Virus record (IMG/VR): IMGVR_UViG_3300032116_000159 | Span: 2,613-66,612 of that record | DNA from: a virus | DNA length: 64,000 nt | Strand: one strand, 5' to 3' | The notes under the pieces: model-generated | What the model saw: the letters and a program-made list of their open reading frames with translations, nothing else | Databases searched by the model: none | Told to the model about the DNA's origin: nothing | Position numbers and translations under genes: made by a program | Part shown: positions 7,895 to 62,662 of the stretch, piece by piece | Layout: each line of letters starts with the position of its first letter | Position numbering within the stretch: position 1 is the stretch's first letter

Positions 7895-8221
7895 TTAACG
7901 AGTACTCATATTTTTCAAAATATTCCCAAATTTCTTTTCGAAATTTTTCGCAGTCGCATTCCATCTGTTTTTAAATTCATCAATTGGAATTTCACCGTAC
8001 ATCTCATCGATCAACATTTCAGTTTCCATTAAAAAATCATCGACGGTATCTTGTACTATTTGTGTGGCAATTTGACGACCATACTCGTTAAGTTTCGGAT
8101 TAGATGATTGTGGTATACCAGATTTCATTTTAGTCTCGTCTAAATACTGTCGAGTCATCAGTTCGACAACCTTTGAAATTTTTTCACGAATTACCTCTGT
8201 CGTATTCGATCTACTTTTCAT
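7895..8221 (-). CDS. Hypothetical protein, candidate head cargo
   Basis: 108 aa; amphipathic VIREKISKVVEL and YLDE/KLNE sites. Confidence 0.65.
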   Translation of the reverse strand: MKSRSNTTEVIREKISKVVELMTRQYLDETKMKSGIPQSSNPKLNEYGRQIATQIVQDTVDDFLMETEMLIDEMYGEIPIDEFKNRWNATAKNFEKKFGNILKNMSTR

Positions 8222-8222
8222 A

Positions 8223-8717
8223 TTAGCATTTCCTTTTTTTCTTCGTTTCCGGTAGTGCAGTATATCCTACAGGATTTTGTTTGCCGATTTCGTATTCTAA
8301 ATATTCTGCGGCCGCACTTACATTATGTTTAGCATCGATTATTTTTGTTTGCCACCAGTGAGGAAAATCGACCGGTGACTGTAAATTCTTTACGAGTTTG
8401 CATAATTCGGCTGCGTCTTTTGCTATTGAATATAAATCCGATTTTATCATTTCGAGTTCATCTTCATCATGACTTAAATCTAACGCTTCCTTTTTAACCG
8501 GCAAACCTTTATGTTTTGTTTTAGCGAATTTTTCTAATTCCTTTTCTGACATTTTGTACATTTCTTTAGATGCACCTTTTAATGAAGATACTGGAATGTC
8601 GCCTCTTTTTGCTGCCAATGCTGCACCGGCTGCTTGTTGTTGGTCTTGTGATACCGATTTTTCGTTTATAACTTCGCTAACTGCTTGTCGTATATATGTT
8701 CGGATTTTATTTTGCAC
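8223..8717 (-). CDS. DUF3008-like domain protein with cargo-type leader
   Basis: SQDQQQAAGAALAAKRG...LKGASKEMYKMSEKELEKFAKTKHKGLP recalled as DUF3008; leader KIRTYIRQAVSEVINE; GTG start. Confidence 0.7.
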   Translation of the reverse strand: MQNKIRTYIRQAVSEVINEKSVSQDQQQAAGAALAAKRGDIPVSSLKGASKEMYKMSEKELEKFAKTKHKGLPVKKEALDLSHDEDELEMIKSDLYSIAKDAAELCKLVKNLQSPVDFPHWWQTKIIDAKHNVSAAAEYLEYEIGKQNPVGYTALPETKKKRKC

Positions 8718-8719
8718 TG

Positions 8720-9097
8720 TTATACCTCGTAGTATTTTCCTAATACAGTACCGATATCGTCATACGCAGATTCGAATCTTTGTTGACTCTGACGAAGTTC
8801 ACCTGCTGTTTTCTGTAATATTTTATAGGCTTCTTTTAACTGTTTCATGTGTCGTTGTACAGTTACACCATCGAACCAATTTTCGGTTTCTTGCAGTGTC
8901 ATGTTTTCAGCAGTATCTACCAGCCAACCGATCTCTTCAACCTTTTGACGAATTTCTTCTGATTTCACAAACGACTCTTTATAGTTACCGTATTGTCTAC
9001 ATGCTTCTAAAAATGCACGCTTTTCTGATTTCGTGTATCGCAGATTATCGCCAGTTGCATTTTCTTTAAGGAATTTTTTTAAAGTATTCGATTTCAT
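8720..9097 (-). CDS. Helical head-module protein
   Basis: 125-aa coiled-coil ORF next to the protease; leader LKKFLKE. Confidence 0.75.
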   Translation of the reverse strand: MKSNTLKKFLKENATGDNLRYTKSEKRAFLEACRQYGNYKESFVKSEEIRQKVEEIGWLVDTAENMTLQETENWFDGVTVQRHMKQLKEAYKILQKTAGELRQSQQRFESAYDDIGTVLGKYYEV

Positions 9098-9108
9098 ATA
9101 TACCTATT

Positions 9109-9717
9109 TTATTTTAAACAACATACACCAGAAAGTTCGCATATAATATCGCGTATGAGAACATTAGCGATATCGTAACTTTCAGTATTCGGATTTGCTG
9201 ATTCGTTTACACGTTGCATGAACGCGCCTTGAGTTGAAGGATTTGAAACGAAATCCCATCCGACAAGTGTAAAATCTGGTTGCACCTCTACGGTAGTTTC
9301 ATCTAATTGACGCACACTTCCCATACCTCTTGAACTAATACCCAACGTAACACCGGCTTTGAATAGTTCTTTAAGTATATTACCGGACGGTGTATTCAGA
9401 ATCTGAACTTTACCGTATACGTCATCGCCTTTCCATTCCACATTCAGAATATTATGGGATACATTGCGTAAATTCACTACACTCGATTCAGGATGATCTA
9501 ATTCCCCCAACGCCCTCTTCTGTGCAATTTCTACTTTACGGTATCGTTCGATTTCACGTTCGAGTATCGGTTTCGGATATATTCTCCCATTTTGGTTTTT
9601 TACACCAGCACGTTGCAATACACCTTCGACAATAAAAGAATTGTCGCCGTACTTCGATTCGGTTATCGAGTCACGTGTATAAATGAAATTGCCGTATTCT
9701 ACCAATAAGTTTTTCAT
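9109..9717 (-). CDS. gp21: Prohead core protease, T4 gp21 family
   Basis: KNQNGRIYP, ALGELDHP (catalytic His), VSH, NTPSG, GISSRGMGS (catalytic Ser), DFVSNPS. Confidence 0.97.
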   Translation of the reverse strand: MKNLLVEYGNFIYTRDSITESKYGDNSFIVEGVLQRAGVKNQNGRIYPKPILEREIERYRKVEIAQKRALGELDHPESSVVNLRNVSHNILNVEWKGDDVYGKVQILNTPSGNILKELFKAGVTLGISSRGMGSVRQLDETTVEVQPDFTLVGWDFVSNPSTQGAFMQRVNESANPNTESYDIANVLIRDIICELSGVCCLK

Positions 9718-9726
9718 ATCGTTTTC

Positions 9727-9900
9727 TTATTTAGTTTTACCTTCTTCAACTGAAGCCTTTCTGTATAGAGGTAATAACTTTTTCAATTCGTTTGCGAATT
9801 TTCTTGCTTCACTTTGCGATTTTTTTGTTTGACCATTATGCGATTCTTCAAAAGATTCCCACAATTTACTAATTGATTCAAATAATTCATTCTTTGTCAT
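9727..9900 (-). CDS. Hc1 / histone H1-like small DNA-binding protein (57 aa)
   Basis: Manual translation MTKNELFESISKLWESFEESHNGQTKKSQSEARKFANELKKLLPLYRKASVEEGKTK*; ARK...EL.K....YRK.S.E pattern of Bacteroidota Hc1-family proteins; ATGA overlap with the upstream gene. Confidence 0.65.
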   Translation of the reverse strand: MTKNELFESISKLWESFEESHNGQTKKSQSEARKFANELKKLLPLYRKASVEEGKTK

Positions 9901-10502
9901 TTTCCAATCTCCCTTATTTTATTTTCTAATCGTAACAATCTTTCAGATATTTTATTGAAACGTTGGAAAGTTTGTTTTAAAAATATTTGTTGATCTGCAC
10001 CGATTTCAGTTTTTAATTTCGATAACCGATTTACAGTGCTTTCGATCTCGTATAACTGTTTCGAAACTTCTTTGATACCAGTGTTTATTTTTTGTTTAAA
10101 TGTCGAACTCGGATCGTTTTTAAAATCTTTATATGAGATCTCATCTAATTTTTTTATCGTATCGCTCATACGAGACAGTAATTGTTCAACAATTGCAGGT
10201 TCGTAGTATTTAGGTATCATATTCTTTTTCTTTTTCTTTTTAGAAGTAAATGCATATGGTGTTTGATATTCACCGCCCGCACTTGCTGTTGTGTTCATCT
10301 CGTCGACTTCATCGTATTCATCTACAGTATCTAACGGTTCGGTACCTTCTTCTTTTCTCCACCCACCACCAGCATCTTTATATTCACCTGCTGCCCACGC
10401 GTTTGCATATGCAGACGGATACACATCGAATTTTTTTTTAGCTCGTGATTTATAATACGACCATTTTTGTTTATCGGTCGGCACATTTTTCTCTGTTAAC
10501 AT
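9897..10502 (-). CDS. Modular hypothetical protein (basic YPSAYA module plus coiled coil)
   Basis: KKKFDVYPSAYANAW..EYK..GG.W module, acidic linker, GEYQTPYAF, C-terminal coiled coil. Confidence 0.75.
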   Translation of the reverse strand: MLTEKNVPTDKQKWSYYKSRAKKKFDVYPSAYANAWAAGEYKDAGGGWRKEEGTEPLDTVDEYDEVDEMNTTASAGGEYQTPYAFTSKKKKKKNMIPKYYEPAIVEQLLSRMSDTIKKLDEISYKDFKNDPSSTFKQKINTGIKEVSKQLYEIESTVNRLSKLKTEIGADQQIFLKQTFQRFNKISERLLRLENKIREIGK

Positions 10503-10819
10503 TATGCCCCAGTTTTAACATACACGGGTTTTTGCCCTTTTTTCTGCTCTCCACCTTTCTTCGCATCTCCACCTTTTTTCTGAGCAGCTCTTTTTCTATT
10601 TACAAATGATGCGATTCCTTTTTTTCCTAATTTTGACGCTTTCTCTTTCGATAAACATGCTGAATACGCATCCCCCTCTTTTGCATCACCGCACTTTCCA
10701 ACCTTTTCACCTTTTGAATTGTATCGGTCCCATCCACCACCAGTTGAAGATCCTGACCCGCCTTTGCCAAACCACTTTCTAAGGTCTTCTTTATAAATGT
10801 CAGTTAACTTTAGACTCAT
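10502..10819 (-). CDS. Small basic protein, DUF5872-like
   Basis: EDLRKWF...W...CG...C...RKRAA; Lys/Gly-rich. Confidence 0.6.
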   Translation of the reverse strand: MSLKLTDIYKEDLRKWFGKGGSGSSTGGGWDRYNSKGEKVGKCGDAKEGDAYSACLSKEKASKLGKKGIASFVNRKRAAQKKGGDAKKGGEQKKGQKPVYVKTGA

Positions 10820-11660
10820 TACGTGATTCCAAGTGATGAATAAGTTCGTAATATTTAATCATTGATGAAATATGTTCGTCTTTAACACGTTTAGCATTTA
10901 CAATCTCATTCGCTAAATTTGTCACTTCGTTCAATTTTATTTTTAATGCTGTATCCTCAACCTTGCGTATCAGAGAATACAATGATTTTTGTATACCGAT
11001 AGCTTCGGTATATATAAATTCTTTAAATGGTTGGAGACTTGTATTTTCAGTTATAAAACGATTTATCAATGTTTTTTGTTTCGGATTCAAGTTCTTGTAT
11101 TTGTTATTGAACTTTTCGATAACCATTTTGAACGCAAGTTGTTTGATTTCCGAACTCTGCTTATCGTATATAGACTGTGGTGATTCTGTTAATTTAGTTT
11201 TATTCGCACCTGTCAAATGTTCTAAAATCGTATCATACGAATTCACATGCCCTGTTGGATTATCTGCAGAGTCATATTCAAATAATTTATATACAGATGC
11301 TTTCAATTTATAATCGTGTACACGCGCTTCGAAGAACTTTGCAAGATCGTACTTAGATTTTATCTCAGATATCAGACTGTATTTTTCCTTATTAAGTTTT
11401 TTCTCGTCGATACTCTTTCGCTGTTTCAGTACAATCTCTACGAGTTTAAATGCAGTTGACTCTTTTTTGTTTCGTGTGTCGATTAAGGCTTGATAACATG
11501 CCAGTTCTTTATTTAACTCGGTACCTTCTTTAAAGAATTTTCTAACAATTGTCAAACTCTGATTTTTATTATTAGTCAATACGTCAGATGCGACCTGTTT
11601 AGACAGCAACTCAAAGATGATACCGGTATTTTTGTATTTTACATGTTTAAATTTCTTCAT
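10800..11660 (-). CDS. Hypothetical head-module protein
   Basis: 286-aa helical ORF between portal and protease, behind a late motif at 11685-11694. Confidence 0.75.
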   Translation of the reverse strand: MKKFKHVKYKNTGIIFELLSKQVASDVLTNNKNQSLTIVRKFFKEGTELNKELACYQALIDTRNKKESTAFKLVEIVLKQRKSIDEKKLNKEKYSLISEIKSKYDLAKFFEARVHDYKLKASVYKLFEYDSADNPTGHVNSYDTILEHLTGANKTKLTESPQSIYDKQSSEIKQLAFKMVIEKFNNKYKNLNPKQKTLINRFITENTSLQPFKEFIYTEAIGIQKSLYSLIRKVEDTALKIKLNEVTNLANEIVNAKRVKDEHISSMIKYYELIHHLESRNESKVN

Positions 11661-11684
11661 GCTATGCTACACCTATGATTTAAT

Positions 11685-11694
11685 AATAAATATT
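11685..11694 (-). promoter_or_regulatory. Putative late promoter AATATTTATT
   Basis: Variant of the recurring GATATTTATA motif. Confidence 0.5.
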
Positions 11695-11705
11695 AAGCAA
11701 TTCCC

Positions 11706-13556
11706 TTAAACTAATTCATCTAACAATGAATTTTCATCAAGCATCTTAATATTATCGATATCTGAATCGTTTTTTTTCGTTTCATTGAGTGCAACAACTT
11801 TTTTACCGAACGATTTCGCTATAAGTTCCAAATCTTTACCAGCATTTAAAAACCCGTTTGCGAATTCCTTTCTGCCTGACGGGTCTCTACCATATAACGG
11901 ATCTTTATCACGTTCAAACGATCCGTGCTTTAAAGGTCTACCAGTGTTTTCTTCACGTTTGTCTTTCTTATAGAGTTTTGTAATTCGGTCACCTGCTTCA
12001 GATTCCTCTGCATGTTTAATACCCATACTCGATGCGATTTGCATAGATACGATATCGTGAGGTGTACCAAATGATCTTCCAGTTTTCGCCGGGTCATTAC
12101 CTTCAGATTTAATCTGCTCTTCTCTGAATTCACGTTTAAGGTCTTCGATCATCAGTTCTTGCTGCTCTTCCCATTCCTCATGTGTCATATTGAATAGATT
12201 CTCGTAAACCCATTTACGGCTGAATAATTTGTTTTCTTTTATGTTCTGAATCAGATTCAGTTTCTCATTTAACAGATCGACTTTCTGACGTTCATACAAC
12301 AAAGATGGTGTCGACAATTCCAAAGAGAAATCTACAAGATCTTCATCACGGAAACCTTGCATGTATAAATGTATGTGACCAATTTTCTGCAATTCAGATA
12401 CTACAATTTTTTGAATTCTTTCTATGAATCTTGCAAATTTTATATCTTCGGCCGCAAGTGTTCCTTTACCGTCGACACCTTCATCATAACCTAAATACGC
12501 TTTCGGTATTTTCAAATACGCCATTTGTTTTTTCTGCAAATATTCGATATCCTCTAAACTACCTTCATTTGTCAAACCAGGTAACGATTCGATTCCAGTA
12601 CCACTATCAGCACCTCTTGTCGGTAAATAGAAATCCTCAAGCATATTCATGAGGTTGAAGCGTAAATTGTAGTCGCCAGTTTGAGGATCGATGTATGGTA
12701 CCTTTTTCATTGTATTCGCAACGTCTTCCATGTATCCGTCGATTGCTTCAGGTGGTAAATTTCCGACATCGATTTTAAATATACGTCTCTCAGGTGCTCT
12801 CATAATACGATGTATCAACATCGCATCTTCCATCATGGTCAATTGTTTCCAAACTTTTCTTGCGCCTTCTAATAACGATTTACCATACGGTAAAAAGTTT
12901 GTATCGGTCAGTACACGAAAATGTGCGATCTCATGATAATCGAAAACGCTTCTTGCTTTCTGATAATTAAACATCGTCTCACCCTCATAAATATATTGTG
13001 TGAGATTTTGATTATCACCTGCATAGTCATCACGTTTAATCAGTGATGGGTGAATCGGCACTGCATCCACAATACCTACTGAAGGTACTGTATTCAAGTA
13101 TAAGAATAAATCGCCATATTTACATAGCGATCTTGTCCAATGCCACAGATTAAAATCGACATTTAAAATATCGTAATATAGGTTATTAAGTATTTTTTTC
13201 TTTTCTGCATCATCGCACCGTATTGTCAATAGGTTACCATGTGCGTCTTTTACAGTAGCCTCATCTGCATATATGTCTAATGCAGATGCTAAGATCGGAT
13301 CCGATTCCATACTTTCATAATCAAGATACATAGCCATTCTTGCCGCATCGACCTGTTCGGTCTGTGAAGAATAACCGGTACCGTATTGGCTATCACCAAA
13401 TCTTGACGATTTTATACCACCGTATTTCGGCGTTATATTATTACCGATCGACTGTAATTTATCATAATCGATTACACGGAGTCGATCACCCGGTGTTTTT
13501 TTTATGATTATTTTTTGACTAAATAGTCGCTGTATTACTTTTCCTATTGCTGACAT
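11706..13556 (-). CDS. gp20: Portal protein, T4 gp20 family
   Basis: MMEDAMLIHRIMRAPERRIFKIDVGNLP, MLEDFYLPTRG, IESLPG, EDIEYLQKK, LKIPK, IKFARFIERIQ. Confidence 0.97.
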   Translation of the reverse strand: MSAIGKVIQRLFSQKIIIKKTPGDRLRVIDYDKLQSIGNNITPKYGGIKSSRFGDSQYGTGYSSQTEQVDAARMAMYLDYESMESDPILASALDIYADEATVKDAHGNLLTIRCDDAEKKKILNNLYYDILNVDFNLWHWTRSLCKYGDLFLYLNTVPSVGIVDAVPIHPSLIKRDDYAGDNQNLTQYIYEGETMFNYQKARSVFDYHEIAHFRVLTDTNFLPYGKSLLEGARKVWKQLTMMEDAMLIHRIMRAPERRIFKIDVGNLPPEAIDGYMEDVANTMKKVPYIDPQTGDYNLRFNLMNMLEDFYLPTRGADSGTGIESLPGLTNEGSLEDIEYLQKKQMAYLKIPKAYLGYDEGVDGKGTLAAEDIKFARFIERIQKIVVSELQKIGHIHLYMQGFRDEDLVDFSLELSTPSLLYERQKVDLLNEKLNLIQNIKENKLFSRKWVYENLFNMTHEEWEEQQELMIEDLKREFREEQIKSEGNDPAKTGRSFGTPHDIVSMQIASSMGIKHAEESEAGDRITKLYKKDKREENTGRPLKHGSFERDKDPLYGRDPSGRKEFANGFLNAGKDLELIAKSFGKKVVALNETKKNDSDIDNIKMLDENSLLDELV

Positions 13557-13568
13557 ATTTCAATTTTT

Positions 13569-15164
13569 TTATAGTAACCACCGTGTCGATATAGTATTAC
13601 CTTTTCCGTCATCCATTGTCCATTTTGAATTATCCCCATTCGCATTCGGTGTATACACTCGTTTGTGCATATGTTGTAATGTTTTTCTGGTCATATCTAA
13701 ACCAATCTCACGTAGTTTCAGTGCAGTATCACGAACAAATAACGCAATACCTGTCGATAATACTGCATCGTCTTTACGGCCTGGTCTTGCCTGTGCTTTA
13801 CCGTTTAGCCATACAAAAACAAGCAATTGTGATATTAGCCTCTTCGACCTTACTATAATTAGTTTTTCATTGAAATATCGCTCGATTTTTGATACGATCA
13901 TTGGACGATTTGCGGTAGTTGTTGTGAAACCAGGAACCATATCCTTTTTCGATTTCAAATCGTATCCTTTCGAAATATGTTTTATCGGATCGACATATAC
14001 ATCCTGTCTGTAACTATAAAAAATATTCGAATAATTCATGTCGATCGCTTCTTGTACAGTATCATAACCGATATTTTTATTTTCAATTACAAGCATTGCC
14101 GTGTTGTATTCGGTTGCGATCGATACCGCCATTCTACCTAAATCTCGTGGCGATACTTTTCCAATATACTCGGCAACTTGTTCCATCGATTCGACATCAA
14201 AAACTTCAATTGCAGAATCGTCGGCACCATCGCCACGAGCAACGTCTACCGATACAACATAAGATCGTGTATAATCAGGATATTTCCATATCCAATAATC
14301 GCCATCGATCCCTCTGCGTTCTAATGGATCGGTAACCATGTTTTCGTTGTACCATTTTAAAACATCACCTTCAATAACCGAATGACCTGATGTCAAAAAG
14401 TCGCAGTCACATTCCTGTGCCGCCATTCTTTCACCTAAATGGAGAGTCTGTTGGTCACGCCATTTTTGATCTCGTTCAGGATGTAGATCCCAATTAAGTT
14501 TTATCGGATTAAACGGATCTAAACCGTCTGGTGCTTTTTGTATTTCTGCATCGACCCATAATTGGTGAAATAAGTTGTCTACACCATTTGGAGTCGATAA
14601 TAATATTGCATCTCCACCTGTAGCTAATGTCATCTGTGCCGATGCCCAAATACGATCGATGTTGTCAACAAATGCAGCCTCATCTATAATCAATAGTGAA
14701 AGTGCTTCGGAACGTCCTGCTGTTGGTGAGGATGATACAGCTTTAATTGTTGAACCGTTTGCGAATGATAATTGTAGTTTATTATCATCTACTACACGCG
14801 TTTTCATCCATGACGGCAAGTTCGTATTCATTACCTTTACTTTATGTACAAGGTTCTTTGCAACATCTTGTGTTGTTGCGATTACGAGTACTTTGTAGTT
14901 TTCACGGAAAAGCATATTCATTAAAGCATATGCAGCAACCAGTGTTGAAATTCCCATTTGACGGGACTTCAATATTATATTGAATTTATGCGATATTATT
15001 TCTTCAAGGGCCCGTGTTTGAAACGGGAATAGTTGAAACGGAATTTTGCCCTGAATAGGGTGTTCGATCTTGCAGTATTTTTTTATCGCATAATTATAAT
15101 CGACACTACATCGTGCAAGTTCTTGGGTTACAATATCACGTATGTTCGGTTGTTTTTCTGACAT
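13569..15164 (-). CDS. terL: Terminase large subunit, gp17 family
   Basis: LFPFQ, Walker A KSRQMGIST, Walker B LIIDEAAF, LSTPNG, nuclease VDVARGDGADDS and DDAV. Confidence 0.97.
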   Translation of the reverse strand: MSEKQPNIRDIVTQELARCSVDYNYAIKKYCKIEHPIQGKIPFQLFPFQTRALEEIISHKFNIILKSRQMGISTLVAAYALMNMLFRENYKVLVIATTQDVAKNLVHKVKVMNTNLPSWMKTRVVDDNKLQLSFANGSTIKAVSSSPTAGRSEALSLLIIDEAAFVDNIDRIWASAQMTLATGGDAILLSTPNGVDNLFHQLWVDAEIQKAPDGLDPFNPIKLNWDLHPERDQKWRDQQTLHLGERMAAQECDCDFLTSGHSVIEGDVLKWYNENMVTDPLERRGIDGDYWIWKYPDYTRSYVVSVDVARGDGADDSAIEVFDVESMEQVAEYIGKVSPRDLGRMAVSIATEYNTAMLVIENKNIGYDTVQEAIDMNYSNIFYSYRQDVYVDPIKHISKGYDLKSKKDMVPGFTTTTANRPMIVSKIERYFNEKLIIVRSKRLISQLLVFVWLNGKAQARPGRKDDAVLSTGIALFVRDTALKLREIGLDMTRKTLQHMHKRVYTPNANGDNSKWTMDDGKGNTISTRWLL

Positions 15165-15168
15165 AGTG

Positions 15169-15564
15169 TTATCGAATTGTTGCTACAATATACGCTCCTG
15201 AAAAGATTGTAAAACCGCCTATTAGTGTACCGGCAATAAAACTGAATTGTTTAGTTTCGTACCATTTCTCTTTAGGTTTCGTAGGAAAATCTACAAATCG
15301 ATTCACGGCATTTTTATAGATGTCGATTTCTTTATTTCGATAATCGATTATTGTTTCGTTATATGAATTTAGACGAGTCAGTGCATCGACCTGTTTTAAC
15401 AGATTCGCATTTTGACTATCCTTGACTTGTAAATCGCTTTCTAAATTTTTTATACGTACCGATGCATTAATCAAGAGATCTTTGTGTACAGTGATCGAGT
15501 CTGCTTTTTGTGCGAATACGCAAATAGATATTAAAACGAAAAAAGTTGTCAGTATCTGTTTCAT
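15169..15564 (-). CDS. Secreted coiled-coil protein with C-terminal TM helix, spanin-like candidate
   Basis: Signal peptide ending VFA-Q, coiled coil, KWYE followed by hydrophobic FIAGTLIGGFTIF. Confidence 0.55.
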   Translation of the reverse strand: MKQILTTFFVLISICVFAQKADSITVHKDLLINASVRIKNLESDLQVKDSQNANLLKQVDALTRLNSYNETIIDYRNKEIDIYKNAVNRFVDFPTKPKEKWYETKQFSFIAGTLIGGFTIFSGAYIVATIR

Positions 15565-15565
15565 A

Positions 15566-15889
15566 TTATTTACTGTTTAAAATATTCAATGCGTCTTCGA
15601 CTGTTAGATCGACCGGTTTACCTTTTTTAGAATTGCGTTCGATTCGATCAAGTTCTTTTTTCAATTCAGAAATCTCTTCGAGTGTCAACTGCTTATCTCG
15701 TTCAACCTGTTCACTTTCAACTGCAAGTTTTTCTGCTTCGGTGATTTTCGAATAGACTTCGGTTACGATTTCAGTTTTATACTGATACGCATTATATAGA
15801 ATATATGCAAGTGCGCCGTTTGACATCAGCGACAGTATCATTACGATATAGATTAGTATATTACTCTGAGACTTTTGTTGTGTTTCCAT
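15566..15889 (-). CDS. N-terminal TM coiled-coil protein, i-spanin-like candidate
   Basis: Start reassigned to METQQK at 15889; ILIYIVMILSLMSNGALAYILY TM segment then coiled coil. Confidence 0.55.
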   Translation of the reverse strand: METQQKSQSNILIYIVMILSLMSNGALAYILYNAYQYKTEIVTEVYSKITEAEKLAVESEQVERDKQLTLEEISELKKELDRIERNSKKGKPVDLTVEDALNILNSK

Positions 15890-16502
15890 TATATTCTTGT
15901 ATTTTTTGTAACGCGATTTTTTTAAATTCATGGTATTCTTCACGCATTTTTTCTGCGTGTGTTCGGTCCCCATTCCAAACTTCGATTCGCCCGTCGCTAT
16001 TCACAAAGTGAGATTCGCCGGCAATTTGTTCGTAAGTTATGTCGATCTCTTTATCGGCCTGTTTGAAAAACGCTTCGGCGTTACGCATCATCTGCTCACG
16101 CTCGTACTCTTTAAATTTACCTTCTTGTTTCATTTTGGTTTCGATACGAAATTGGCAGTCTGCACATCTACCGAATTTTGCACGGAATCGCTTATCTAAT
16201 TTCGTGTACACCTTTGTACGACAATTAGGTAAACAGTTCGGATACGAATTCAAGTATTCACGTATCTCCTCTACGGCTTCTTTATGCACACCACTGCGTA
16301 CACGATATCCGTTCTTCTGTTCCCATACTGCAATAACATCACCATTCGAATCTTTCTCTTCCCAAGTCTCTCCAACTTCACGGCGTTTCGATTTCTCACT
16401 CGCTACATCAGCATCGGTGAAACCAATTTTTGTACGTGTTTGAGTTCGATGTTTACCTTCAAGCATCTCACGAACTGCTTTAACATTTTGTAACCTTGCC
16501 AT
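15861..16502 (-). CDS. Hypothetical protein with Cys pairs (possible Zn site)
   Basis: REVGETWEE, WEQKNGY, CLPNC...CADC. Confidence 0.75.
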   Translation of the reverse strand: MARLQNVKAVREMLEGKHRTQTRTKIGFTDADVASEKSKRREVGETWEEKDSNGDVIAVWEQKNGYRVRSGVHKEAVEEIREYLNSYPNCLPNCRTKVYTKLDKRFRAKFGRCADCQFRIETKMKQEGKFKEYEREQMMRNAEAFFKQADKEIDITYEQIAGESHFVNSDGRIEVWNGDRTHAEKMREEYHEFKKIALQKIQEYNGNTTKVSE

Positions 16503-16517
16503 ATTCGATATATTATA

Positions 16518-16829
16518 TTAGTCGTTTTTTGATGCGTCTTTTAATCCTTGGACCATTGCATTTATTTTACCTTTCGGTACACCTACTAAATCAGCAAACT
16601 TCACAATTGCTTCTGCCTGGTCACCGGTATTATTGAATTTCAATAGATTTTTCAATGAAGAGTTTTCAAGTTTTTCAAAAAATCTCTTGACTCTGATTTT
16701 TTTAAATTCCTTAGAAGTCTCAGTTTTTTCTTCATTAATCAATTCTGCAAGAGTTTGCTGCACCATTTTTTGTACAGCTAATCTTATCTGTTTTTCATGC
16801 AATGGGTGTTTCGGATTTCTTATGTTCAT
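16518..16829 (-). CDS. Hypothetical protein, candidate head cargo
   Basis: Late motif at 16850-16859, TAAGGA SD, leader QIRLAVQKMVQQTLAELINE. Confidence 0.7.
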   Translation of the reverse strand: MNIRNPKHPLHEKQIRLAVQKMVQQTLAELINEEKTETSKEFKKIRVKRFFEKLENSSLKNLLKFNNTGDQAEAIVKFADLVGVPKGKINAMVQGLKDASKND

Positions 16830-16872
16830 TTCATTCCTTATAATTTACTAATAAATATCTTTTTCGATTCGA

Positions 16873-19272
16873 TTAACGTGTAAATGTAAACACGCCCATT
16901 ATTTGATTTAACGGTGCAAACGCACCGGTCAGTTTATATGTACTACCTTTATAATTAAATACAATGCCCTCATTAGGTACAATCTTTTCAAAACCACCTA
17001 ATGATTCGAGTCGCTTCAATTCCAATTCGAGTTTAATTAAATTTTTAGCATCACCAGTTGCACGTATTGAAGATATCGCGTTTTTAAGTTTGTCGACAAT
17101 ATCACGTTTCGCCTCTTCAGGATTTACAACAAGTACCGATGACATGAAGGAAAGTACATCGGCGCCAACGCCTAAAAATATTTCTTCGAATTTCATAAGA
17201 TTTGTTTTTGAAATTTTCTGGTAGTCGAGTTTATCTGTTTTTTCGGCCCATTGACGGATGTCAGGATCGGTGATCTGATTTAATCGGAACGACTTATCGA
17301 AAAACGCCCATCGTTTAACTAAACCGTCACGTATATCTGGTGACAAATCTTTCGGAGCGTTTTTATTGATCCATTGTTCCCACCATGCTTGATGATAGTC
17401 TTCAACACCATTCGCATCGTTTAATCCGAATTCTTTTTGCAGTTTCGATATCTTAGTAATATAATCAGGTTGTTTCGCCATTAGATCTTGACTCTTCGGT
17501 AAAGTTTGTACAGGAGGTCCTTGTAATTTAAAACGACTTTGAATATTGGCATTTACCTTTTCGATCATATCGGCAAGTTTAAAACCTGCTTGAGGATCTT
17601 CGCTTATCGGATTCCCTCGTTCATCGTATTCCATTGTACCGTGGAATACTAAAAGCGATTGCCCATATGGAATGACATTTGTATTTTCAGGATATATCAC
17701 TTCGCAATTCATGAACGCTTTACCCTCTTTGAATATCGATTCGCGTTCCGCATTAGATAATTGTATTATTGCAGATTTTAAATCCTTTATTGCAAATGTA
17801 AACGCATCCGATAATGCACCACGTCCTGCAAATTTATCGATGAGATCTTGCTCAGTCATTGCCATTTCACCTGCGTTTACTAAGTGACCTTTATTTCTTG
17901 CAGAAATCAATGCACCATTTTTCCAACTTATCGCAAGTGCCTGACCATCTGTTTTCTCACGGGCTAATTCGAGTTCGCCAGTTAATGCTGACTTTACAAT
18001 TTGTTTGAGATCGCCAAATGTTAAATTCATGTCGATATCGAATGGGTGTGCCATATGACCATATGCACCACCTTCAAGTATTATATTTTCGGTTAAGGCT
18101 TCTGTACGCAATTTTTTTATTTTAGACATTATAGAATCTAATTCGGCTTTAGCTTTTATTTGTTTTGGTGAATTCGGAAACATTTTCATCAGTGCCGAAA
18201 ACAAACGATTTCTCTCCGATTCTAATTTACGGAGTTCGTTCTTTGTATCCTCTACCGATTCTTTGTTTATTTCAATCGCTTGCAGTTGTTTTATTGCCGC
18301 TTTTTTAGTATCATGGGTACCTAATCGTTTACCACCCTTTTTAGGATACACTACCCAGTCGTCACCGACTTTTTTTACTGTTTCAATATTTAACACAGGA
18401 TCCGGTGACTTAAATGCCGGCTTTCGCATAATTGTTTTTGCGATTAATCGATTCGCCTGTGTTTTAAACGGTATATTGATATTTGTTCTTTTATCCGTAA
18501 TTACAAATTCCAAATATTTTTTAGTGAATTCATCGAACGCTGCTCTATTTCTAATGAGACGTTTAAAGAACCCGATCATTTCCGCATACGAAATTTCTTT
18601 GCCGTTTCTTGGATCGTTCAATCGTTGAAAAAAATGATCGATTTCTCTACCAAATTCGAAATCGTATGGAGCTAAATTCGTATCGGCGAATTTTTCCACA
18701 GAATCTAAATCGGCCTTAGCCATTTCATTCATCACATTGAGTTTCGATCGTATCAAATCGTATATGCGCTTGTCGAAATTCGGATACGCTTTTTCGAAAT
18801 TCAATTTAGCGTTGTTTTCATCAGATATACTAAGCCAATCTCTTACATCAGTACCACTTATCGCATTCGGTAGTGATGGAGCAACATACACGTAGCCCTG
18901 TTGTTTAAACGGCAATAAATCAGTGTTACCAGTGTACGGCAAAAAATATTTACCGCCTAAACGGCCGGAGTCTTTTTCACCGACAACCGTTATCAATATA
19001 TCCGAGTCTTCATCATAATCGTTCAGAATTTCAATAGGCCGGTACGGATTTTTTACCTGTACCACTTGCGTCTTCGGTATACCGAACATCGATGTTATTA
19101 TGGTTTTTTTATCTTTGAAATCGAATGGCGATTTCGGTAATTCTACTTTATCTGAGGTTCCGATATAAACATTCGCCTTTCCGAATTTCTTGACAAGATG
19201 CATATAGGTCGCATAATGCCCTTTGTGAAAAGGTTGAAATCTACCTACATATGTTACGATGATATTACCCAT
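16873..19272 (-). CDS. Multidomain protein: HxGH nucleotidyltransferase plus ligase-like KxDG domain
   Basis: N-terminal GRFQPFHKGH and ISGTDVR; C-terminal EKTDG, EVIYP, EGIV, YKLTG. Confidence 0.75.
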   Translation of the reverse strand: MGNIIVTYVGRFQPFHKGHYATYMHLVKKFGKANVYIGTSDKVELPKSPFDFKDKKTIITSMFGIPKTQVVQVKNPYRPIEILNDYDEDSDILITVVGEKDSGRLGGKYFLPYTGNTDLLPFKQQGYVYVAPSLPNAISGTDVRDWLSISDENNAKLNFEKAYPNFDKRIYDLIRSKLNVMNEMAKADLDSVEKFADTNLAPYDFEFGREIDHFFQRLNDPRNGKEISYAEMIGFFKRLIRNRAAFDEFTKKYLEFVITDKRTNINIPFKTQANRLIAKTIMRKPAFKSPDPVLNIETVKKVGDDWVVYPKKGGKRLGTHDTKKAAIKQLQAIEINKESVEDTKNELRKLESERNRLFSALMKMFPNSPKQIKAKAELDSIMSKIKKLRTEALTENIILEGGAYGHMAHPFDIDMNLTFGDLKQIVKSALTGELELAREKTDGQALAISWKNGALISARNKGHLVNAGEMAMTEQDLIDKFAGRGALSDAFTFAIKDLKSAIIQLSNAERESIFKEGKAFMNCEVIYPENTNVIPYGQSLLVFHGTMEYDERGNPISEDPQAGFKLADMIEKVNANIQSRFKLQGPPVQTLPKSQDLMAKQPDYITKISKLQKEFGLNDANGVEDYHQAWWEQWINKNAPKDLSPDIRDGLVKRWAFFDKSFRLNQITDPDIRQWAEKTDKLDYQKISKTNLMKFEEIFLGVGADVLSFMSSVLVVNPEEAKRDIVDKLKNAISSIRATGDAKNLIKLELELKRLESLGGFEKIVPNEGIVFNYKGSTYKLTGAFAPLNQIMGVFTFTR

Positions 19273-19304
19273 TATTCTTCTTTATTACGTGTTATTAATA
19301 ATTA

Positions 19305-23255: not shown

Positions 23256-23280
23256 TAATAACAGACCTTTATCATAATTA

Positions 23281-27350: not shown

Positions 27351-27356
27351 ACTTTG

Positions 27357-45543: not shown

Positions 45544-45592
45544 AACGATGTCTTTTTTATTAAATAAATATCAGTGAAGATGGAATTGTAAA

Positions 45593-54975: not shown

Positions 54976-54985
54976 TATAAATATC
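54976..54985 (-). promoter_or_regulatory. Putative late promoter GATATTTATA
   Basis: Exact copy of the recurring motif. Confidence 0.6.
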
Positions 54986-56603: not shown

Positions 56604-57065
56604 TTACTCGCCGTAACTCGCTGAATTTTTCGCATGCTCATAAACTTCAACTTTTGTAACTCTGACTCGGTTGTCGGTTTCAAGTTTTACAAAATTGTTT
56701 ATTTGATTGAACAAAAACTCAGCAAATCTTTCACATCCTACTGCATCTAATACTCGCAATTGAATTATACCTAAATCAGCCAATTCACGGAATTTATCTA
56801 AATAAGGGTCATCCTCTGCTACAATAGTTGTATGGTCTAAAAGATAATCGAAATACTCTTTCGGTGTTTTACCATCGATTTTATTTTTGGCACGTTTCAT
56901 ACCGCCAAAATCCCAAACCCAATTACGTTCGTCTAAATCCCCTTCGAACCATACTCTAAATGATACCGCATAACCATGCAGGTATTTACAATGAGTACCT
57001 TCAGCTCTCCATTGACGGAAGCATGCTGAATACCCATCGAATAATTTTGATGATGTAAACTTCAT
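56604..57065 (-). CDS. queD: QueD / 6-pyruvoyl-tetrahydropterin synthase family
   Basis: HCKYLHGY, WVWDFG, LDHT, GCE..A, V.V.E..KNSA.Y. Confidence 0.88.
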   Translation of the reverse strand: MKFTSSKLFDGYSACFRQWRAEGTHCKYLHGYAVSFRVWFEGDLDERNWVWDFGGMKRAKNKIDGKTPKEYFDYLLDHTTIVAEDDPYLDKFRELADLGIIQLRVLDAVGCERFAEFLFNQINNFVKLETDNRVRVTKVEVYEHAKNSASYGE

Positions 57066-59264: not shown

Positions 59265-59355
59265 ATTACATAACAAATATAGGGCGTTACGGCTTACGAT
59301 GCAACCTTTTCCGACAAAATGTTCGATTGAAGATTCTGAGAAATCCAAATATTAT
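59265..59355 (-). promoter_or_regulatory. 91-bp early-promoter cassette, copy 1
   Basis: GTTG-N20-TATATTTG; colinear with 63844-63934. Confidence 0.8.
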
Positions 59356-59792
59356 TTTGTGGGGTTGTCACTGTCGATATACTTCGACCATACATCTTGT
59401 TTGACTCGACGTCGTGTTCGGCGCTTCGGTTTAGGCAGTTCAGTTTCGAGTTCATCGAGTAGTGTACTGACTGCAAGTTCTGATTCGATTTCATCTAAAC
59501 GACTCAGTACACGCATCGCATAATGGCAGTCTTCGTACCTTTCTGCAGCGACAAGATGTGCGATATTTTTTTCGATTGTGGTACGATACTCTTTCGGGTC
59601 GATTATAATTTCGAGTGATGCCGCTATATCTTCGACATCGATTTGAAAACCCGGTTCATAAGACGGATCGTTGTGGTGTTCGATCGCAACAGCAATTTCA
59701 TCGATTATGTAACGGGAAAACTCAGGTGCTTCCGGTCCATGTATCATATCACGTAATTGCTGTTGCGTTTCGAGTCGTATACGTCTTTGCAT
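59352..59792 (-). CDS. Hypothetical protein with UVR-like motif
   Basis: LVAAERYEDC; basic tail KPKRRTRRR. Confidence 0.65.
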   Translation of the reverse strand: MQRRIRLETQQQLRDMIHGPEAPEFSRYIIDEIAVAIEHHNDPSYEPGFQIDVEDIAASLEIIIDPKEYRTTIEKNIAHLVAAERYEDCHYAMRVLSRLDEIESELAVSTLLDELETELPKPKRRTRRRVKQDVWSKYIDSDNPTK

Positions 59793-59801
59793 AAAGAGAG
59801 A

Positions 59802-60083
59802 TTATTTCCAAACTGCGCTACCGTCACTTGTTACGTACTGTCCACGATTGTGGCGGCGTATTACACCTTTCATAGCGGCAGCGATTTGAGTTTCCATTTC
59901 ATCACGGAAACGATTTAACTGGCGGTCATCCATTGTACGTACCGATGGGCCCATACCGCTCTGAAAAGAAAAATATTGGTCGACGATTTCCCGTGCCATT
60001 TTTTTAAGGTCAAGTACCTGTGCCTCTTCGAGTTCCTGACGGACCGTTTCCTTTATAATTCTGCGCAAATCTGAGTGTGTCAT
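59802..60083 (-). CDS. Candidate head cargo protein
   Basis: MTHSDLRRIIKETVRQELEE; TAAGGA SD. Confidence 0.7.
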   Translation of the reverse strand: MTHSDLRRIIKETVRQELEEAQVLDLKKMAREIVDQYFSFQSGMGPSVRTMDDRQLNRFRDEMETQIAAAMKGVIRRHNRGQYVTSDGSAVWK

Positions 60084-60091
60084 CGGTATCC

Positions 60092-60409
60092 TTATTGCGG
60101 TTCGTATTCATCGAAACGTTTCTGCAATGCAGTACCGGCATCCTCACCGAATCGTATTGTGTACTGATCGAGTAGTTGTTTGAGAAAACCGTCACGTTGC
60201 TTTGTGTACACGAGACGCTTCTTCGGATCCGATTCCGATTTCAGTCTTTGAGCAAGTGTGCGTAAAGACGAGAAAGAACGATCTTCCAACGCCTTAGCCA
60301 GTGCCACGACGGCATCATTATACATATCACGTCGCAGTAAACGATCGGTTTCCGATTCTACACGTTTCGGGTCGACAACTACCGCTTCAAATAAATCACG
60401 TAATTTCAT
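60092..60409 (-). CDS. Candidate head cargo protein
   Basis: MKLRDLFE; AAGGA SD. Confidence 0.7.
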   Translation of the reverse strand: MKLRDLFEAVVVDPKRVESETDRLLRRDMYNDAVVALAKALEDRSFSSLRTLAQRLKSESDPKKRLVYTKQRDGFLKQLLDQYTIRFGEDAGTALQKRFDEYEPQ

Positions 60410-60428
60410 GGTGTTCCTTTTTTATCGA

Positions 60429-60707
60429 TTATCGGATTCGAACTTTATTTTTATCGACCAGATCATCGATGAACTTTTTCGAATCAGATTTCGTGTCGTA
60501 GTTTTTAAGTTGATTTACAATTAAATCGAAGGCCTTCTTTCCTGAACTTCCTTTTGCTTGTGTTATAAGGAGTGTTCGCCCGCCGGGGAATTCAAGTGTT
60601 ACTCTATGCATTTGCGGGTCGGAGGTATCTACTTTGTGACCTATGACCTCCGAAGATTCAGTTAAAGCCCGTCGGACTTCTTCTTTAATGATTTGTTGCA
60701 ATTTCAT
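60429..60707 (-). CDS. Candidate head cargo protein
   Basis: MKLQQIIKEEVRRALTE. Confidence 0.7.
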   Translation of the reverse strand: MKLQQIIKEEVRRALTESSEVIGHKVDTSDPQMHRVTLEFPGGRTLLITQAKGSSGKKAFDLIVNQLKNYDTKSDSKKFIDDLVDKNKVRIR

Positions 60708-60809
60708 GGTATCTCTTTTTATTCAGTTTCAAATTAGTTCGACGAAGTCGAACAGAGTCCGACCGCAATCGTTTCACCGTGTGTACCGTTCGGTACCTTC
60801 GGTACGGCG

Positions 60810-61112
60810 TTAACCGCGTCGCGTCGCTTCGATTTCTTTACCGATCGCTTCGATCACTTTAGGAAACTCACGGGCCCATTCACCGTCTTTGACAATGCGG
60901 TATGCGTCTTCTAAAGCACGGTTAGCACGTTGGAGGTTCTGCTGCGACGGCGCCGCGTTTTTCTCTTCGACGAATACACGGAGTTCCCGTAGAAACTCCC
61001 ACATTTGTTGATAGAACAAACCGAACCGTGGTCGGAGGTTTTCGCTTTCCCAACCGGCTGCTTCACGGAGTTGCCGACGGACTTGTTCCGGTGTTAAATG
61101 GTTTAGATTCAT
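60810..61112 (-). CDS. Candidate head cargo protein
   Basis: LTPEQVRRQLRE; AAGG SD. Confidence 0.7.
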   Translation of the reverse strand: MNLNHLTPEQVRRQLREAAGWESENLRPRFGLFYQQMWEFLRELRVFVEEKNAAPSQQNLQRANRALEDAYRIVKDGEWAREFPKVIEAIGKEIEATRRG

Positions 61113-61156
61113 GTGTGCCTTTTTATTTCTTCACGGACTGTTTGTTTTAGTTTCAT
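61109..61156 (-). other. 15-codon mini-ORF encoding only the cargo leader motif
   Basis: ATG at 61156 gives MKLKQTVREEIKRHT*, with an ATGA overlap onto the 61112 start. Confidence 0.45.
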
Positions 61157-61162
61157 TGAGTT

Positions 61163-61945
61163 TCATTCCTGTGATTCAAATTTAGCAGTTACACCCAATG
61201 TATCAAATGTTGCAGACAAGTCCTTTTCCAATTCATCAAGTGTTTCAGGCTCTTCAGGAAAAAACCAATAACCCTTTCTTGCATTCCAATAGGCAATGAG
61301 TTGATGATCTTCAATGATGTCTTTGATTGTATTGTTATCAATAGGTGTACGACCTTTCACAACCAGGCCAGGACCCGTAAAATCAGCACCATACGACTCA
61401 TTCATTAATACAAATTCAGGATCTTTTTCATATGCAATTTTACCCCCGTCCAATTCCCATTTACCATTACCTAATTTTTTTACAATTTTGTTTATTTTAG
61501 GTTTGGCGGTTTTTAGGTTTTTATATTGTACAGACTTTCCAATTGCCCATTCAGATGCCTCATTAACACGCGCAGCGGAAACAGAGTTTGACACCTTCCT
61601 ACCTTTATTAGAATGCGCAAGGAGTCCGCGCCTAACTTCTTCCGCAATGATTTGCTTTAGATTCATGGGGTTTATGCTTTCGGTTACCGATTTATAATCA
61701 TTATACAATTTTTCGATTTGTCTTATCAATAGGCGTTCACCCTCATCCCATGTTTTAAAGGTTTTGGCATTGACACCGGCAGCACCGGCAATAAAGCCCA
61801 TTGCACGTTGCCATTTAACATCGTTGTCACGGTGTAAGCTATCGAAATATTTTGTTACGACGGCATCGGACCATTTCCCGTTCAATGCATTTAATATGCC
61901 TTGGCCGTGTTTCGATTGAAAAAAATCGCGGGTTCTTCTATTCAT
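61163..61945 (-). CDS. Modular candidate cargo polyprotein
   Basis: Internal MNLKQIIAEEVRRGLL leader and SVTE/RVNE/LMNE junctions between modules. Confidence 0.7.
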   Translation of the reverse strand: MNRRTRDFFQSKHGQGILNALNGKWSDAVVTKYFDSLHRDNDVKWQRAMGFIAGAAGVNAKTFKTWDEGERLLIRQIEKLYNDYKSVTESINPMNLKQIIAEEVRRGLLAHSNKGRKVSNSVSAARVNEASEWAIGKSVQYKNLKTAKPKINKIVKKLGNGKWELDGGKIAYEKDPEFVLMNESYGADFTGPGLVVKGRTPIDNNTIKDIIEDHQLIAYWNARKGYWFFPEEPETLDELEKDLSATFDTLGVTAKFESQE

Positions 61946-61956
61946 GAAAAATTCCT

Positions 61957-62316
61957 TTATTTCTTTCGGCCTAATCGGTACTGCCCTCGCATTCCCTGTC
62001 GCACTTTCGGATCTTCGAAATCGGCGTATTTGCCGGCTTTGATTCCCCGTTTAACATAGATCACAAGATCACGGAGTTTGCCGAAACCACGCATACCACG
62101 TCCACGCTCCCAGTCATCGATCATCATGGTACCGGGTTCCTGTTCGTCGAATTCGATCGGAATTCCGATATCGTCACCTTCATATGTTAGATAGGTGAAC
62201 TGGCCTGAACCGTCGATCTGATACCCCATGAATTTCGGATTCATGTTCTCTTCACGGAGTTGTCTTTGGACTTCTTCACGGATTAATTTTTTCAGTAATA
62301 ATGCTTTCTCGTTCAT
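61957..62316 (-). CDS. Candidate head cargo protein
   Basis: Start reassigned to MNEKALLLKKLIREEVQRQLREE at 62316; GAGGA SD. Confidence 0.7.
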   Translation of the reverse strand: MNEKALLLKKLIREEVQRQLREENMNPKFMGYQIDGSGQFTYLTYEGDDIGIPIEFDEQEPGTMMIDDWERGRGMRGFGKLRDLVIYVKRGIKAGKYADFEDPKVRQGMRGQYRLGRKK

Positions 62317-62344
62317 TGTGTTCCTCATTGTGTTCCGTATCGGT

Positions 62345-62662
62345 TTATCGTTTAACAATGCGTGCGTCTTTGCCTTCGCCTTCAATACGACCAGCTGCAT
62401 ACATCGCTTTCACATAGTCGACCATTTCTTGGTTGGTTCCACGTAACGGTTTGTCGGCACCGTCGATCCAATAGCCACCCATGTCGTAGTCGAATTCGTA
62501 GGCGATGACCGGCTTACCGTCTAACTTAACGATACCTAAGTTACCCTCTCGTCCACCGGAACCCGCTTCTGCTGTCCATTTCTCTTCACGCAGTAAGCCG
62601 GTCTGTCTACGGATCTCTTCGCGTATTAACGCCTTCAGTCGTTGTACATTCTTTGTTTGCAT
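62345..62662 (-). CDS. Candidate head cargo protein
   Basis: RLKALIREEIRRQTGLLREE; AAGGA SD; late motif at 62682-62691. Confidence 0.7.
   Translation of the reverse strand: MQTKNVQRLKALIREEIRRQTGLLREEKWTAEAGSGGREGNLGIVKLDGKPVIAYEFDYDMGGYWIDGADKPLRGTNQEMVDYVKAMYAAGRIEGEGKDARIVKR

Follow-up and report, generated by a model that had tools for sequence, protein, structure and literature searches.

Small, otherwise dissimilar proteins encoded in a 64 kb stretch of viral DNA (bases 2613-66612 of a 66,612-base virus record, here called the window) begin with N-terminal leaders of recurrent classes. The source is an uncultured T4-type, Immutovirus-like myophage of flavobacteria. The leaders are common to unrelated proteins beyond chance, and leader classes are exchangeable on the same module. 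A hydrophobic-x-Glu triplet (h-x-E) marks the module borders, and the phage encodes both a gp21-type protease and a capsid protein with a T4-aligned site. We consider it likely, with a probability of roughly 0.7, that these leaders serve as T4-type tags for capsid targeting and cleavage. Such a tag would consist of an amphipathic stretch followed by h-x-E. A short class would comprise about 10 residues, with hydrophobic residues at positions 4, 7 and 8 and Glu at position 10, and a long class 16-26 residues built around (L/I)-I-(K/R)-E-E. By analogy with T4, the tag would recruit its protein to the scaffolding core of the prohead; cleavage after the Glu, by the gp21-type S77 protease that the phage itself encodes, would follow. 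In multi-module proteins of related phages the same element would form the joint between modules. In T4, the capsid-targeting sequence is the textbook route by which phage proteins enter the cell together with the DNA, and the internal protein IPI disarms a restriction system. A first-pass annotation of the window had proposed that about 20 unrelated proteins share a portable, amphipathic leader and are packed into the head for ejection with the DNA. The observation held in part, as specific leader classes exceeded chance expectation but the loose motif proved unspecific, and the interpretation is partly supported.

Leaders and module borders in related phages

The comparative evidence is the strongest line for the tags. 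Genes are named below by their start coordinate. The module that follows the leader of 28655 was used as a profile of 11 sequences against a library of 1.84 billion, and 1144 representative clusters were retrieved at E<=0.001. The best 150 of these clusters (proteins of 85-1,549 residues, with up to five copies of the module per protein) yielded 162 distinct module starts; 12 starts that could not be located and matches beginning after profile position 13 were left out. The h-x-E triplet stood directly before the module at 160 of the 162 starts (85/85 internal and 75/77 N-terminal ones). The P1 residue was Glu in 160 cases and Asp in two, and P3 was occupied by Leu (88), Ile (46), Val (23) or Met (5). 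The length distribution of the N-terminal leaders had peaks at 10 (n=23) and 16 residues (n=11). Those of 10 residues resembled the short leaders of the window, and nine of the 31 long leaders carried the (L/I)-I-(K/R)-E-E core. Short and long leaders thus occur on one and the same module and are exchangeable. The long leaders of this family end, at the predicted cut, seven residues past E-E, which is consistent with 62316, 60707 and 61112. A further leader class, (R)MQKLAGI(I/L)xE, was seen in two proteins of Flavobacterium phage vB_FspM_immuto (immuto; genes at 25097 and 111675; record NC_055915.1, loci L081-L084) and among the library leaders of the 28655 family, and it is absent from the window.

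The module of 47342 was found within 69 longer proteins of 171-1,342 residues. At 50 of the 52 distinct internal junctions, h-x-E lay no more than 10 residues before the module, compared with 19% at control positions, and the linkers beside the module were often leader-like, with a site on both sides. The presence of Glu two residues past the last Tyr of the module depended on what followed: it was found in 10/12 cases in which more protein came after and in 0/25 cases in which the protein ended (Fisher test, 1.9e-7). An ORF (open reading frame) of 668 amino acids (aa) in one relative, L098, joins the modules of 10819, 10502 (N-terminal part) and 47342 in one chain. Each of the three is preceded by h-x-E at the residue aligned to the predicted cut in the window, with L-K-E directly before DLRKWFGKG of the 10819 module and L-V-E↓KNVPT before the 10502 module (BLASTP 1e-18). 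In the 10502 family, h-x-E also ends the N-termini of relatives, and in another locus (L168) the 10819 module follows the leader MITQERLQEIITE↓S. Relatives of 62316 that are 89-93% identical to it contain an added module of about 80 residues, the long leader having become an internal linker; such near-identical, differently assembled relatives came from a large protein collection, and the search of IMG/VR for relatives of 62316 and 61945 found none. The S77 protease was present in four of the eight module-carrying records, including the sole complete one, and the four records without it are fragments of 5-35% estimated completeness.

The portability of the leaders claimed by the first-pass annotation is borne out by whole-leader exchange. 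Relatives in IMG/VR numbered 428, of which 80 loci were kept for analysis. In the closest of them (L001, capsid protein 79% identical), three long-leader genes surround the protease gene, and the ortholog of 9097 has a long leader where 9097 itself has a short one. In immuto, a single leader of about 25 residues is common to four proteins with unrelated mature parts, and its core matches the leader of 9097, which is of the same type. One locus (L080, 4723-5466) encodes a 9097-type protein fused to a homolog of the module at 35651-35893 of the window, with V-T-E at the joint; the window copy of that module begins at its Met without a leader.

The gp21-type setting supposed for these leaders is present as well. 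In an alignment of the prohead protease of the window with T4 gp21, His75 and Ser128/129 are invariant, and we take these to be the catalytic residues. Its N-terminus, MKNLLVE, aligns to L-I-E of T4 gp21, a site that agrees with the gp21 cleavage logo (PMC9026906). The BLASTP alignment of the major capsid protein placed LVVE57-A58 on FLTE65-A66 of T4 gp23, and QLV(T/S)E↓AN is retained at the site in the relatives shown. A capsid propeptide of 57 residues ending in V-V-E↓A is therefore predicted; the propeptide removed from T4 gp23 has 65 residues (PMC5694885). The protease alignment and the conserved, T4-aligned capsid site make a T4-like cutting rule plausible for the clade.

Controls and alternative explanations

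The evidence of the relatives also bears on a different account, in which the tags are protease sites and module joints of proteins that serve head assembly or DNA packing (core, scaffold-like or histone-like ones that are degraded or retained) and the helix is no address label. Several members do lie in the head module, the location of the core proteins gp67 and gp68 in T4. A few of the mature parts are strongly basic (10819, isoelectric point (pI) 10.0, net charge +15), and a gene for a histone-like Hc1 protein lies between the portal and protease genes. The up to five tandem copies of the 28655 module per protein would suit a bulk structural role, and the T4 internal proteins themselves are abundant, basic and DNA-binding (PMC9026906). 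We nevertheless regard this account as unlikely. Many members are distant from the head module, each with its own promoter-like motif, the mature parts have mixed charges with pI values from 4.5 to 10, and one candidate is an enzyme, a methyltransferase. Furthermore, the exchange of whole leaders between orthologs suggests a role for the helix beyond the three-residue cut site. Several of the head-module members may still be core or assembly proteins rather than effectors.

A second account attributes the resemblance to chance and to a habit of small phage proteins of starting with an amphipathic helix. All 14 leaders quoted by the first-pass annotation were found on the minus strand where it had placed them; for 62316, 28655 and 47342 the quoted start lies within a longer ORF, at an internal Met, in agreement with the gene spacing. 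The proteins were also otherwise unrelated, as claimed, since no BLASTP pair at E<=0.01 was obtained among the mature parts of 21 candidates. These examples had been picked by eye, and their higher hydrophobic moment (median 0.66 versus 0.50) is for that reason circular. A loose motif, hxxhhxE ending within the first 28 residues, was found in 15/79 proteins of the window, 10/88 of a T4 stretch and 33/246 of immuto, as well as in 9/73 and 6/72 proteins of Flavobacterium phage 11b and Bacteroides phage B40-8, two control phages without an S77 protease (145 proteins together). These counts were dropped as evidence, the rate in the control phages being nearly equal.

The more specific comparisons gave a different picture. 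In a network test, the best ungapped similarity between residues 2-27 was determined for all protein pairs and compared with the 99.9th percentile of a null of interior segments. The window contained 19 such pairs where 2.85 were expected, the three controls showed no excess (T4, 2 versus 2.2; 11b, 3 versus 1.3; B40-8, 2 versus 1.1), and immuto had 36 pairs with 18 expected. The window network joins 62662, 62316, 60707, 60083 and 61112; 45543, 28138, 16829 and the pair 9097-28655 are attached to it more weakly. In register, the 10-residue leaders of 28655, 47342 and 56504 are nearly identical to one another and make up a clique; pairs with at least five identities out of nine numbered four in the window, compared with a mean of 0.54 and a maximum of three in shuffles. 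The long-leader pattern, searched in the window and the 80 related loci, gave 10 non-redundant matches, all of them 2-10 residues after a Met and none within proteins.

Two independent matrices were then applied. The short-leader matrix had nine columns and was built from 68 N-terminal leaders of public libraries, after removal of one identical to that of the window, and 2,153 interior windows supplied the threshold (99th percentile). This threshold was exceeded by 8/79 proteins of the window, 10/246 of immuto, 2/88 of the T4 stretch and 0/145 of the two control phages. At the 95th percentile, the window had 15/79 compared with 10/145 in the controls (p=0.008), and in the T4 stretch 4/7 known substrates scored in comparison to 6/81 other proteins (p=0.0026). 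The long-leader matrix (14 columns, from 31 long leaders) added 8717, 60083 and 9900, so that the union of both matrices comprised 11/79 proteins of the window versus 2/145 of the controls (2.5e-4). The network excess, the matrices, the strictly N-terminal long-leader pattern and the module-end Glu that depends on further protein all argue against chance, which is disfavoured for the core set and which we consider very improbable as a general explanation.

The leaders could, finally, be a by-product of the signals upstream of them. The motif GATATWTATW had 11 matches in the window (2.55 expected; none of 100 shuffles reached 11), nine of which were on the coding strand, and 13 of the 16 matches to a shorter pattern lay 12-38 nt upstream of a start codon. 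In immuto the motif is strand-biased (27 versus 4) and is found ahead of the genes for terminase, sheath, tube, baseplate hub and tail spike, which makes a late role plausible. The first-pass annotation had placed many of the leader genes behind a late-promoter motif with a Shine-Dalgarno (SD) site. The upstream motif is real and has the described neighbours in immuto, but it does not have the orientation of the T4 late promoter. The T4 late promoter TATAAATA was itself tried and rejected: its 21 matches (9.5 expected) fell on both strands and were partly the reverse complement of the real motif. Genes preceded by the motif were richer in high matrix scores (6/12 versus 9/67, p=0.008), SD-like sites were found at 12/18 candidates compared with 19/61 other genes (p=0.012), and the leaders are rich in Lys codons, as they might be if an expression cassette of promoter, ribosome-binding site and favourable first codons had spread by recombination, with a peptide of no role of its own. 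We give this explanation very little credence, in that the codons for identical leader residues frequently differ (5/9 between 62662 and 62316), which points to selection on the peptide, the same peptides occur inside long proteins far from start codons, and h-x-E is conserved between variable flanks.

A number of observations weigh against reading the leaders as targeting and cleavage tags. The loose motif is present in 8-12% of the proteins of unrelated phages, 1.5 to 3.3 times their interior rate. In the window, primase 27350 also carries L-L-E ending at residue 10, and the bare motif is therefore non-discriminating. IPI, IPII and IPIII of T4 fail the short-leader matrix, which accordingly captures a clade-specific composition, and several immuto enzymes exceed its 95th percentile. 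In the 9097 family, h-x-E was found in 33/34 N-terminal regions and also in 82% of interior control segments, and its presence there was discarded as uninformative. Many relatives of 56504 begin with MLSFADYKD(K/R), without the Glu, and in fused forms of this family only one of four junctions has h-x-E. Where the scaffold-like protein has its N-terminal Glu, many of 36 orthologs carry Asp or Ser, so that this cut site is weak. The h-x-E that almost always stands before the 28655 module may be a feature of the fold and not a cut site, and 45543 may be a tail or baseplate factor. Neither a protease nor a capsid gene was found in the L098 record, a 35%-complete fragment, and a search of the main texts of articles found no experimental virion data for the phage or its clade.

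Beyond the window, we tentatively suggest, with somewhat less than even confidence, that a modular 'cut-and-load' grammar is common to T4-type phages of marine and fresh waters. In this grammar, interchangeable leader helices would act both as prohead address and as bead joint while cargo modules circulate. Its leader classes would be the 10-residue, I-K-E-E, LKKFLVEN and QKLAGII-x-E ones. A module would travel either alone, in a tagged gene of its own, or as one of several beads in a protein that may reach about 1,500 residues; one family of modules spans more than 1,000 clusters. The cargo would include a SAM (S-adenosylmethionine)-dependent methyltransferase with an IPI-like N-terminus. If this grammar holds, sequence alone could reveal the injected protein arsenal of uncultured phages. 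If one label, in several exchangeable forms and also as a joint of multi-module proteins, marks a dozen or more genes in a distant, abundant aquatic lineage, the packaged proteome would be predictable, and many candidate first-minute effectors and DNA-packing proteins could be tried against defence systems. The h-x-E rule of the S77 protease would then hold over a wide evolutionary distance.

Candidate proteins and neighbouring genes

The coordinates of the candidates, the promoter-like motif and the head genes are collected in Table 1. Judged from their sequences, about 12 proteins are well supported as putative bearers of the tag (62662, 62316, 60707, 60083, 56504, 47342, 28655, 10819, 10502, 9097, 8717 and the capsid protein as substrate), and about six more are plausible (61112, 16829, 28138, 45543, 52217 and 8221). 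They do not amount to a firm 20, and the 'about 20' of the first-pass annotation had included weak cases such as 60409. Among the 79 proteins of the window, this one ranks neither in the top 30 by short-leader score nor in the top 16 by long-leader score, and no homologs were found among the fetched related loci.

Table 1. Candidate leader-bearing genes, promoter-like motif and head genes of the window (h, hydrophobic residue; the arrow marks a predicted cut)
Feature	Length	Coordinates	Strand	Description
62662	105 aa	62345..62662	-	long leader, core LKALIREEIRRQ; L-R-E ends at residue 26
62316	119 aa	61957..62316	-	long leader MNEKALLLKKLIREEVQRQLRE↓E
61112	100 aa	60810..61112	-	second half only of long leader, EQVRRQLRE↓A
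60707	92 aa	60429..60707	-	long leader MKLQQIIKEEVRRALTE↓S
60409	105 aa	60092..60409	-	weak; MKLRDLFE↓A, own sequence only
60083	93 aa	59802..60083	-	long leader, core LRRIIKETVRQELEE
56504	189 aa	55935..56504	-	viral-only family; 10-residue leader MISIKSLLLE↓T
52217	229 aa	51528..52217	-	SAM-dependent methyltransferase; N-terminal extension of about 55 residues starting MKKFSDL
47342	97 aa	47049..47342	-	10-residue leader MLSLKKLLSE↓R
45543	133 aa	45142..45543	-	ambiguous; N-terminal helix with several h-x-E sites
28655	157 aa	28182..28655	-	10-residue leader MIRLKKLLKE↓IGEA, then widespread module
28138	100 aa	27836..28138	-	plausible; leader MRLTSLKTLIKADTKKMLTE↓D
16829	103 aa	16518..16829	-	plausible; 33-residue leader ending L-I-N-E
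10819	105 aa	10502..10819	-	basic; leader MSLKLTDIYKE↓D
10502	201 aa	9897..10502	-	head module; N-terminus MLTE↓KNVPT
9097	125 aa	8720..9097	-	directly after protease; leader MKSNTLKKFLKE↓N
8717	164 aa	8223..8717	-	GTG start; 19-residue leader, then DUF3008
8221	108 aa	7895..8221	-	plausible only; possible 20-residue leader ending V-V-E
Promoter-like motif GATATWTATW		62682..62691	-	upstream of 62662
Further GATATWTATW copies		54976-54985, 45563-45572, 35920-35929, 28659-28668, 28157-28166, 16850-16859, 4841-4850		
Large terminase		15164-13569	-	Pfam
Portal, gp20 type	616 aa	11706..13556	-	PF07230 at 2e-77; head module begins here
Prohead protease, gp21 type	202 aa	9109..9717	-	PF03420 Peptidase_S77, 3.8e-32, 111.8 bits (cut-off 27)
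Acidic scaffold-like protein, at T4 gp22 position	305 aa	6583..7500	-	N-terminus MKLDSNLLNE↓A
Major capsid protein, gp23 type	541 aa	4935..6560	-	PF07068 at 6.4e-72

Among the long-leader genes, 62662 matched the long-leader pattern, belonged to the N-terminal network and had a promoter-like motif and an SD-like site upstream. The protein 62316 was above the 99th percentile with both matrices, 60707 (a network member) scored 16.8 with the short and 12.2 with the long matrix, and 60083 (also a member) scored 10.2 with the long one. The sole support for 61112 is its score of 40 against 62316 in the network. The region 59300-63000, with small ORFan genes that include the long-leader ones, has a G+C content of 43% compared with 33-39% elsewhere in the window. 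Short-leader matrix scores were 11.7 for 9097 (above the 99th percentile; homologs in 48/80 loci), 10.2 for 56504, a member of the decapeptide clique, and 8.5 for 10819 (between the 95th and 99th percentiles). For 16829 the short-leader score was 12.0, with a promoter-like motif at 16850-16859, and 28138, a network member with a motif at 28157-28166, reached 7.3 with the long-leader matrix. The N-terminus of 45543 was above the 99th percentile with both matrices; the gene lies directly upstream of baseplate genes, and a similar immuto gene at 81525 is placed likewise. The long-leader score of 8221 was 7.5 (between the 95th and 99th percentiles); homologs were found in five loci, and its Pfam match to PF05714 was below the cut-off (18.3 bits versus 27).

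Searches with Pfam and PHROGs assigned DUF3008 to 8717, methyltransferase domains to 52217 and PHROGs of unknown function to 56504, 35893 and 8717. In 8717 (long-leader matrix score 12.4, above the 99th percentile), DUF3008 (PF11450, 3.8e-24, 85.1 bits versus a cut-off of 24) covers residues 23-76 and therefore lies behind the 19-residue leader. In 52217, methyltransferase families of Pfam matched at 1e-7 from residue 56 on. Its homologs have hydrophobic residues at positions 4 and 7 in 28/34 cases and start with MK(K/R)FS(D/E/Q)h in 22/34, followed by a hypervariable linker of 16-52 residues. This N-terminal layout is that of T4 IPI, and 52217 is a candidate packaged enzyme on the strength of it. 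The AlphaFold2 model of 28655 (mean predicted local distance difference test (pLDDT) score of 74.6) was helical at residues 4-13, with residues 1-10 as its least confident block. Foldseek gave no match to it in the PDB at E<=0.001; GNAT-type look-alikes with template-modelling (TM) scores of 0.3-0.47 provide a weak lead towards an acetyltransferase-like fold. The best Foldseek E value for the model of 56504 (pLDDT 73.4) was 0.5, which is no match, and a search of the ESM Atlas with this protein returned unnamed viral clusters only. Sequence searches of the PDB with profiles A2 and A3 found nothing at E<0.1.

The capsid protein shares 56% identity with its counterpart in Microcystis phage Mel-JY01, 52% with the one in immuto and 34% with the one in Rhodothermus phage RM378; megablast of the head module against phage records gave no match. 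Every sizeable gene of the window is on the minus strand, and the immuto gene order agrees with that of the window over most of its length. Homologs of the scaffold-like protein were present in 77/80 capsid loci. Between the protease-side genes and the scaffold gene, the head module contains a homolog of ribosomal protein S21 (7632-7862, minus strand; PF01165, 26.5 bits versus a cut-off of 27). A longer S21 ORF from 7964 is probably wrong, because homologs in 46/80 related loci align from residue 36. The histone H1-like Hc1 homolog (9727-9900, minus strand, 57 residues) matched PF07432 at 4.9e-5, exactly the cut-off; its N-terminus, picked out by the long-leader matrix, belongs to the domain, and the immuto homolog sits elsewhere, at 42260.

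Further minus-strand genes of the window were noted. In a 1047-residue protein (23281-26424), a calcineurin-like phosphoesterase at residues 6-192 is combined with an ATPase of the SMC/RecF type, so that the whole looks like a fused Mre11/Rad50-type (SbcCD-like) nuclease. Next to it, 19305-23255 encodes a very long fibre protein with collagen triple-helix repeats (PF01391, 9.9e-75). The left end of the window falls within the gene of a collagen-like fibre protein that is longer than 1,518 residues; this very long ORF (2-1936) runs past the left end of the record, with repetitive frames typical of collagen-type repeats. Upstream of the terminase gene, 16873-19272 encodes a 799-residue protein with an N-terminal cytidylyltransferase-like domain, at the position of an immuto gene annotated as nicotinamide mononucleotide adenylyltransferase (NadR). 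A QueD-type 6-pyruvoyl-tetrahydropterin synthase (56604-57065), 63% identical to immuto QueD, points to 7-deazaguanine DNA modification, which has reportedly been studied in immuto.

Comparison with T4 and giant phages

As in T4, where gp21 cuts IPI, IPII, IPIII and Alt after L/I-x-E, the window combines a protease, a capsid protein and a portal of the same families with an aligned capsid site. The likeness to T4 internal proteins drawn by the first-pass annotation also stands up to a residue-by-residue comparison. In the T4 record, the 10-residue segment of IPII and IPIII has Tyr4, Phe7, Ile8 and Glu10, and gp24 has Ile4, Leu7, Leu8 and Glu10; the leaders of 28655, 47342 and 56504 have Leu/Ile4, Leu7, Leu8 and Glu10. 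Both this layout of hydrophobic residues 4, 7 and 8 with Glu10 and the occurrence of leaders common to otherwise unrelated, fast-changing proteins are shared with T4 (PMC9026906, PMC3012670). In T4 IPIII, residues 4 and 7 serve targeting and residues 8 and 10 processing, and Asp10 blocks processing but not targeting (PMC9026906).

The differences from T4 concern numbers, classes and use. Whole T4 has eight cut core or internal proteins (gp21, gp22, gp67, gp68, Alt and IPI-III) in addition to gp23 and gp24 (PMC9026906), whereas some 12-18 tagged genes are predicted, from sequence alone, in the 64 kb of the window. Exchangeable leader classes number at least two, and one of them, 16-26 residues long and built on I-(K/R)-E-E, is a variant of the T4 layout. 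In relatives, the tags also link the modules of multi-module proteins, the longest of which has 1,549 residues, and Val and Met occur at P3 of the predicted sites.

The giant phages offer a second comparison. In phiKZ, 201phi2-1 and SPN3US, a diverged gp21-type protease likewise cuts after Glu; 19 processed head proteins are given for 201phi2-1 and eight for SPN3US, with several sites per propeptide, and the propeptides are thought to direct proteins into the prohead (PMC9026906, PMC5694885). These propeptides are mostly longer than 100 residues, and the examples quoted in those articles have Ala or Ser at P3, in contrast to the 10-26 residues of the window leaders and to Leu, Ile, Val or Met at P3 of all 162 starts of the 28655 module. 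No virion RNA polymerase or inner-body genes were seen in the window fragment. The kind of system is therefore known from T4 and, in another form, from the giant phages, and the mechanism itself is not new; this variant differs in how many genes would carry the tag, in leader classes that can be exchanged and in a tag that doubles as the joint of multi-module proteins, and its scale, modular use and lineage are what is new.

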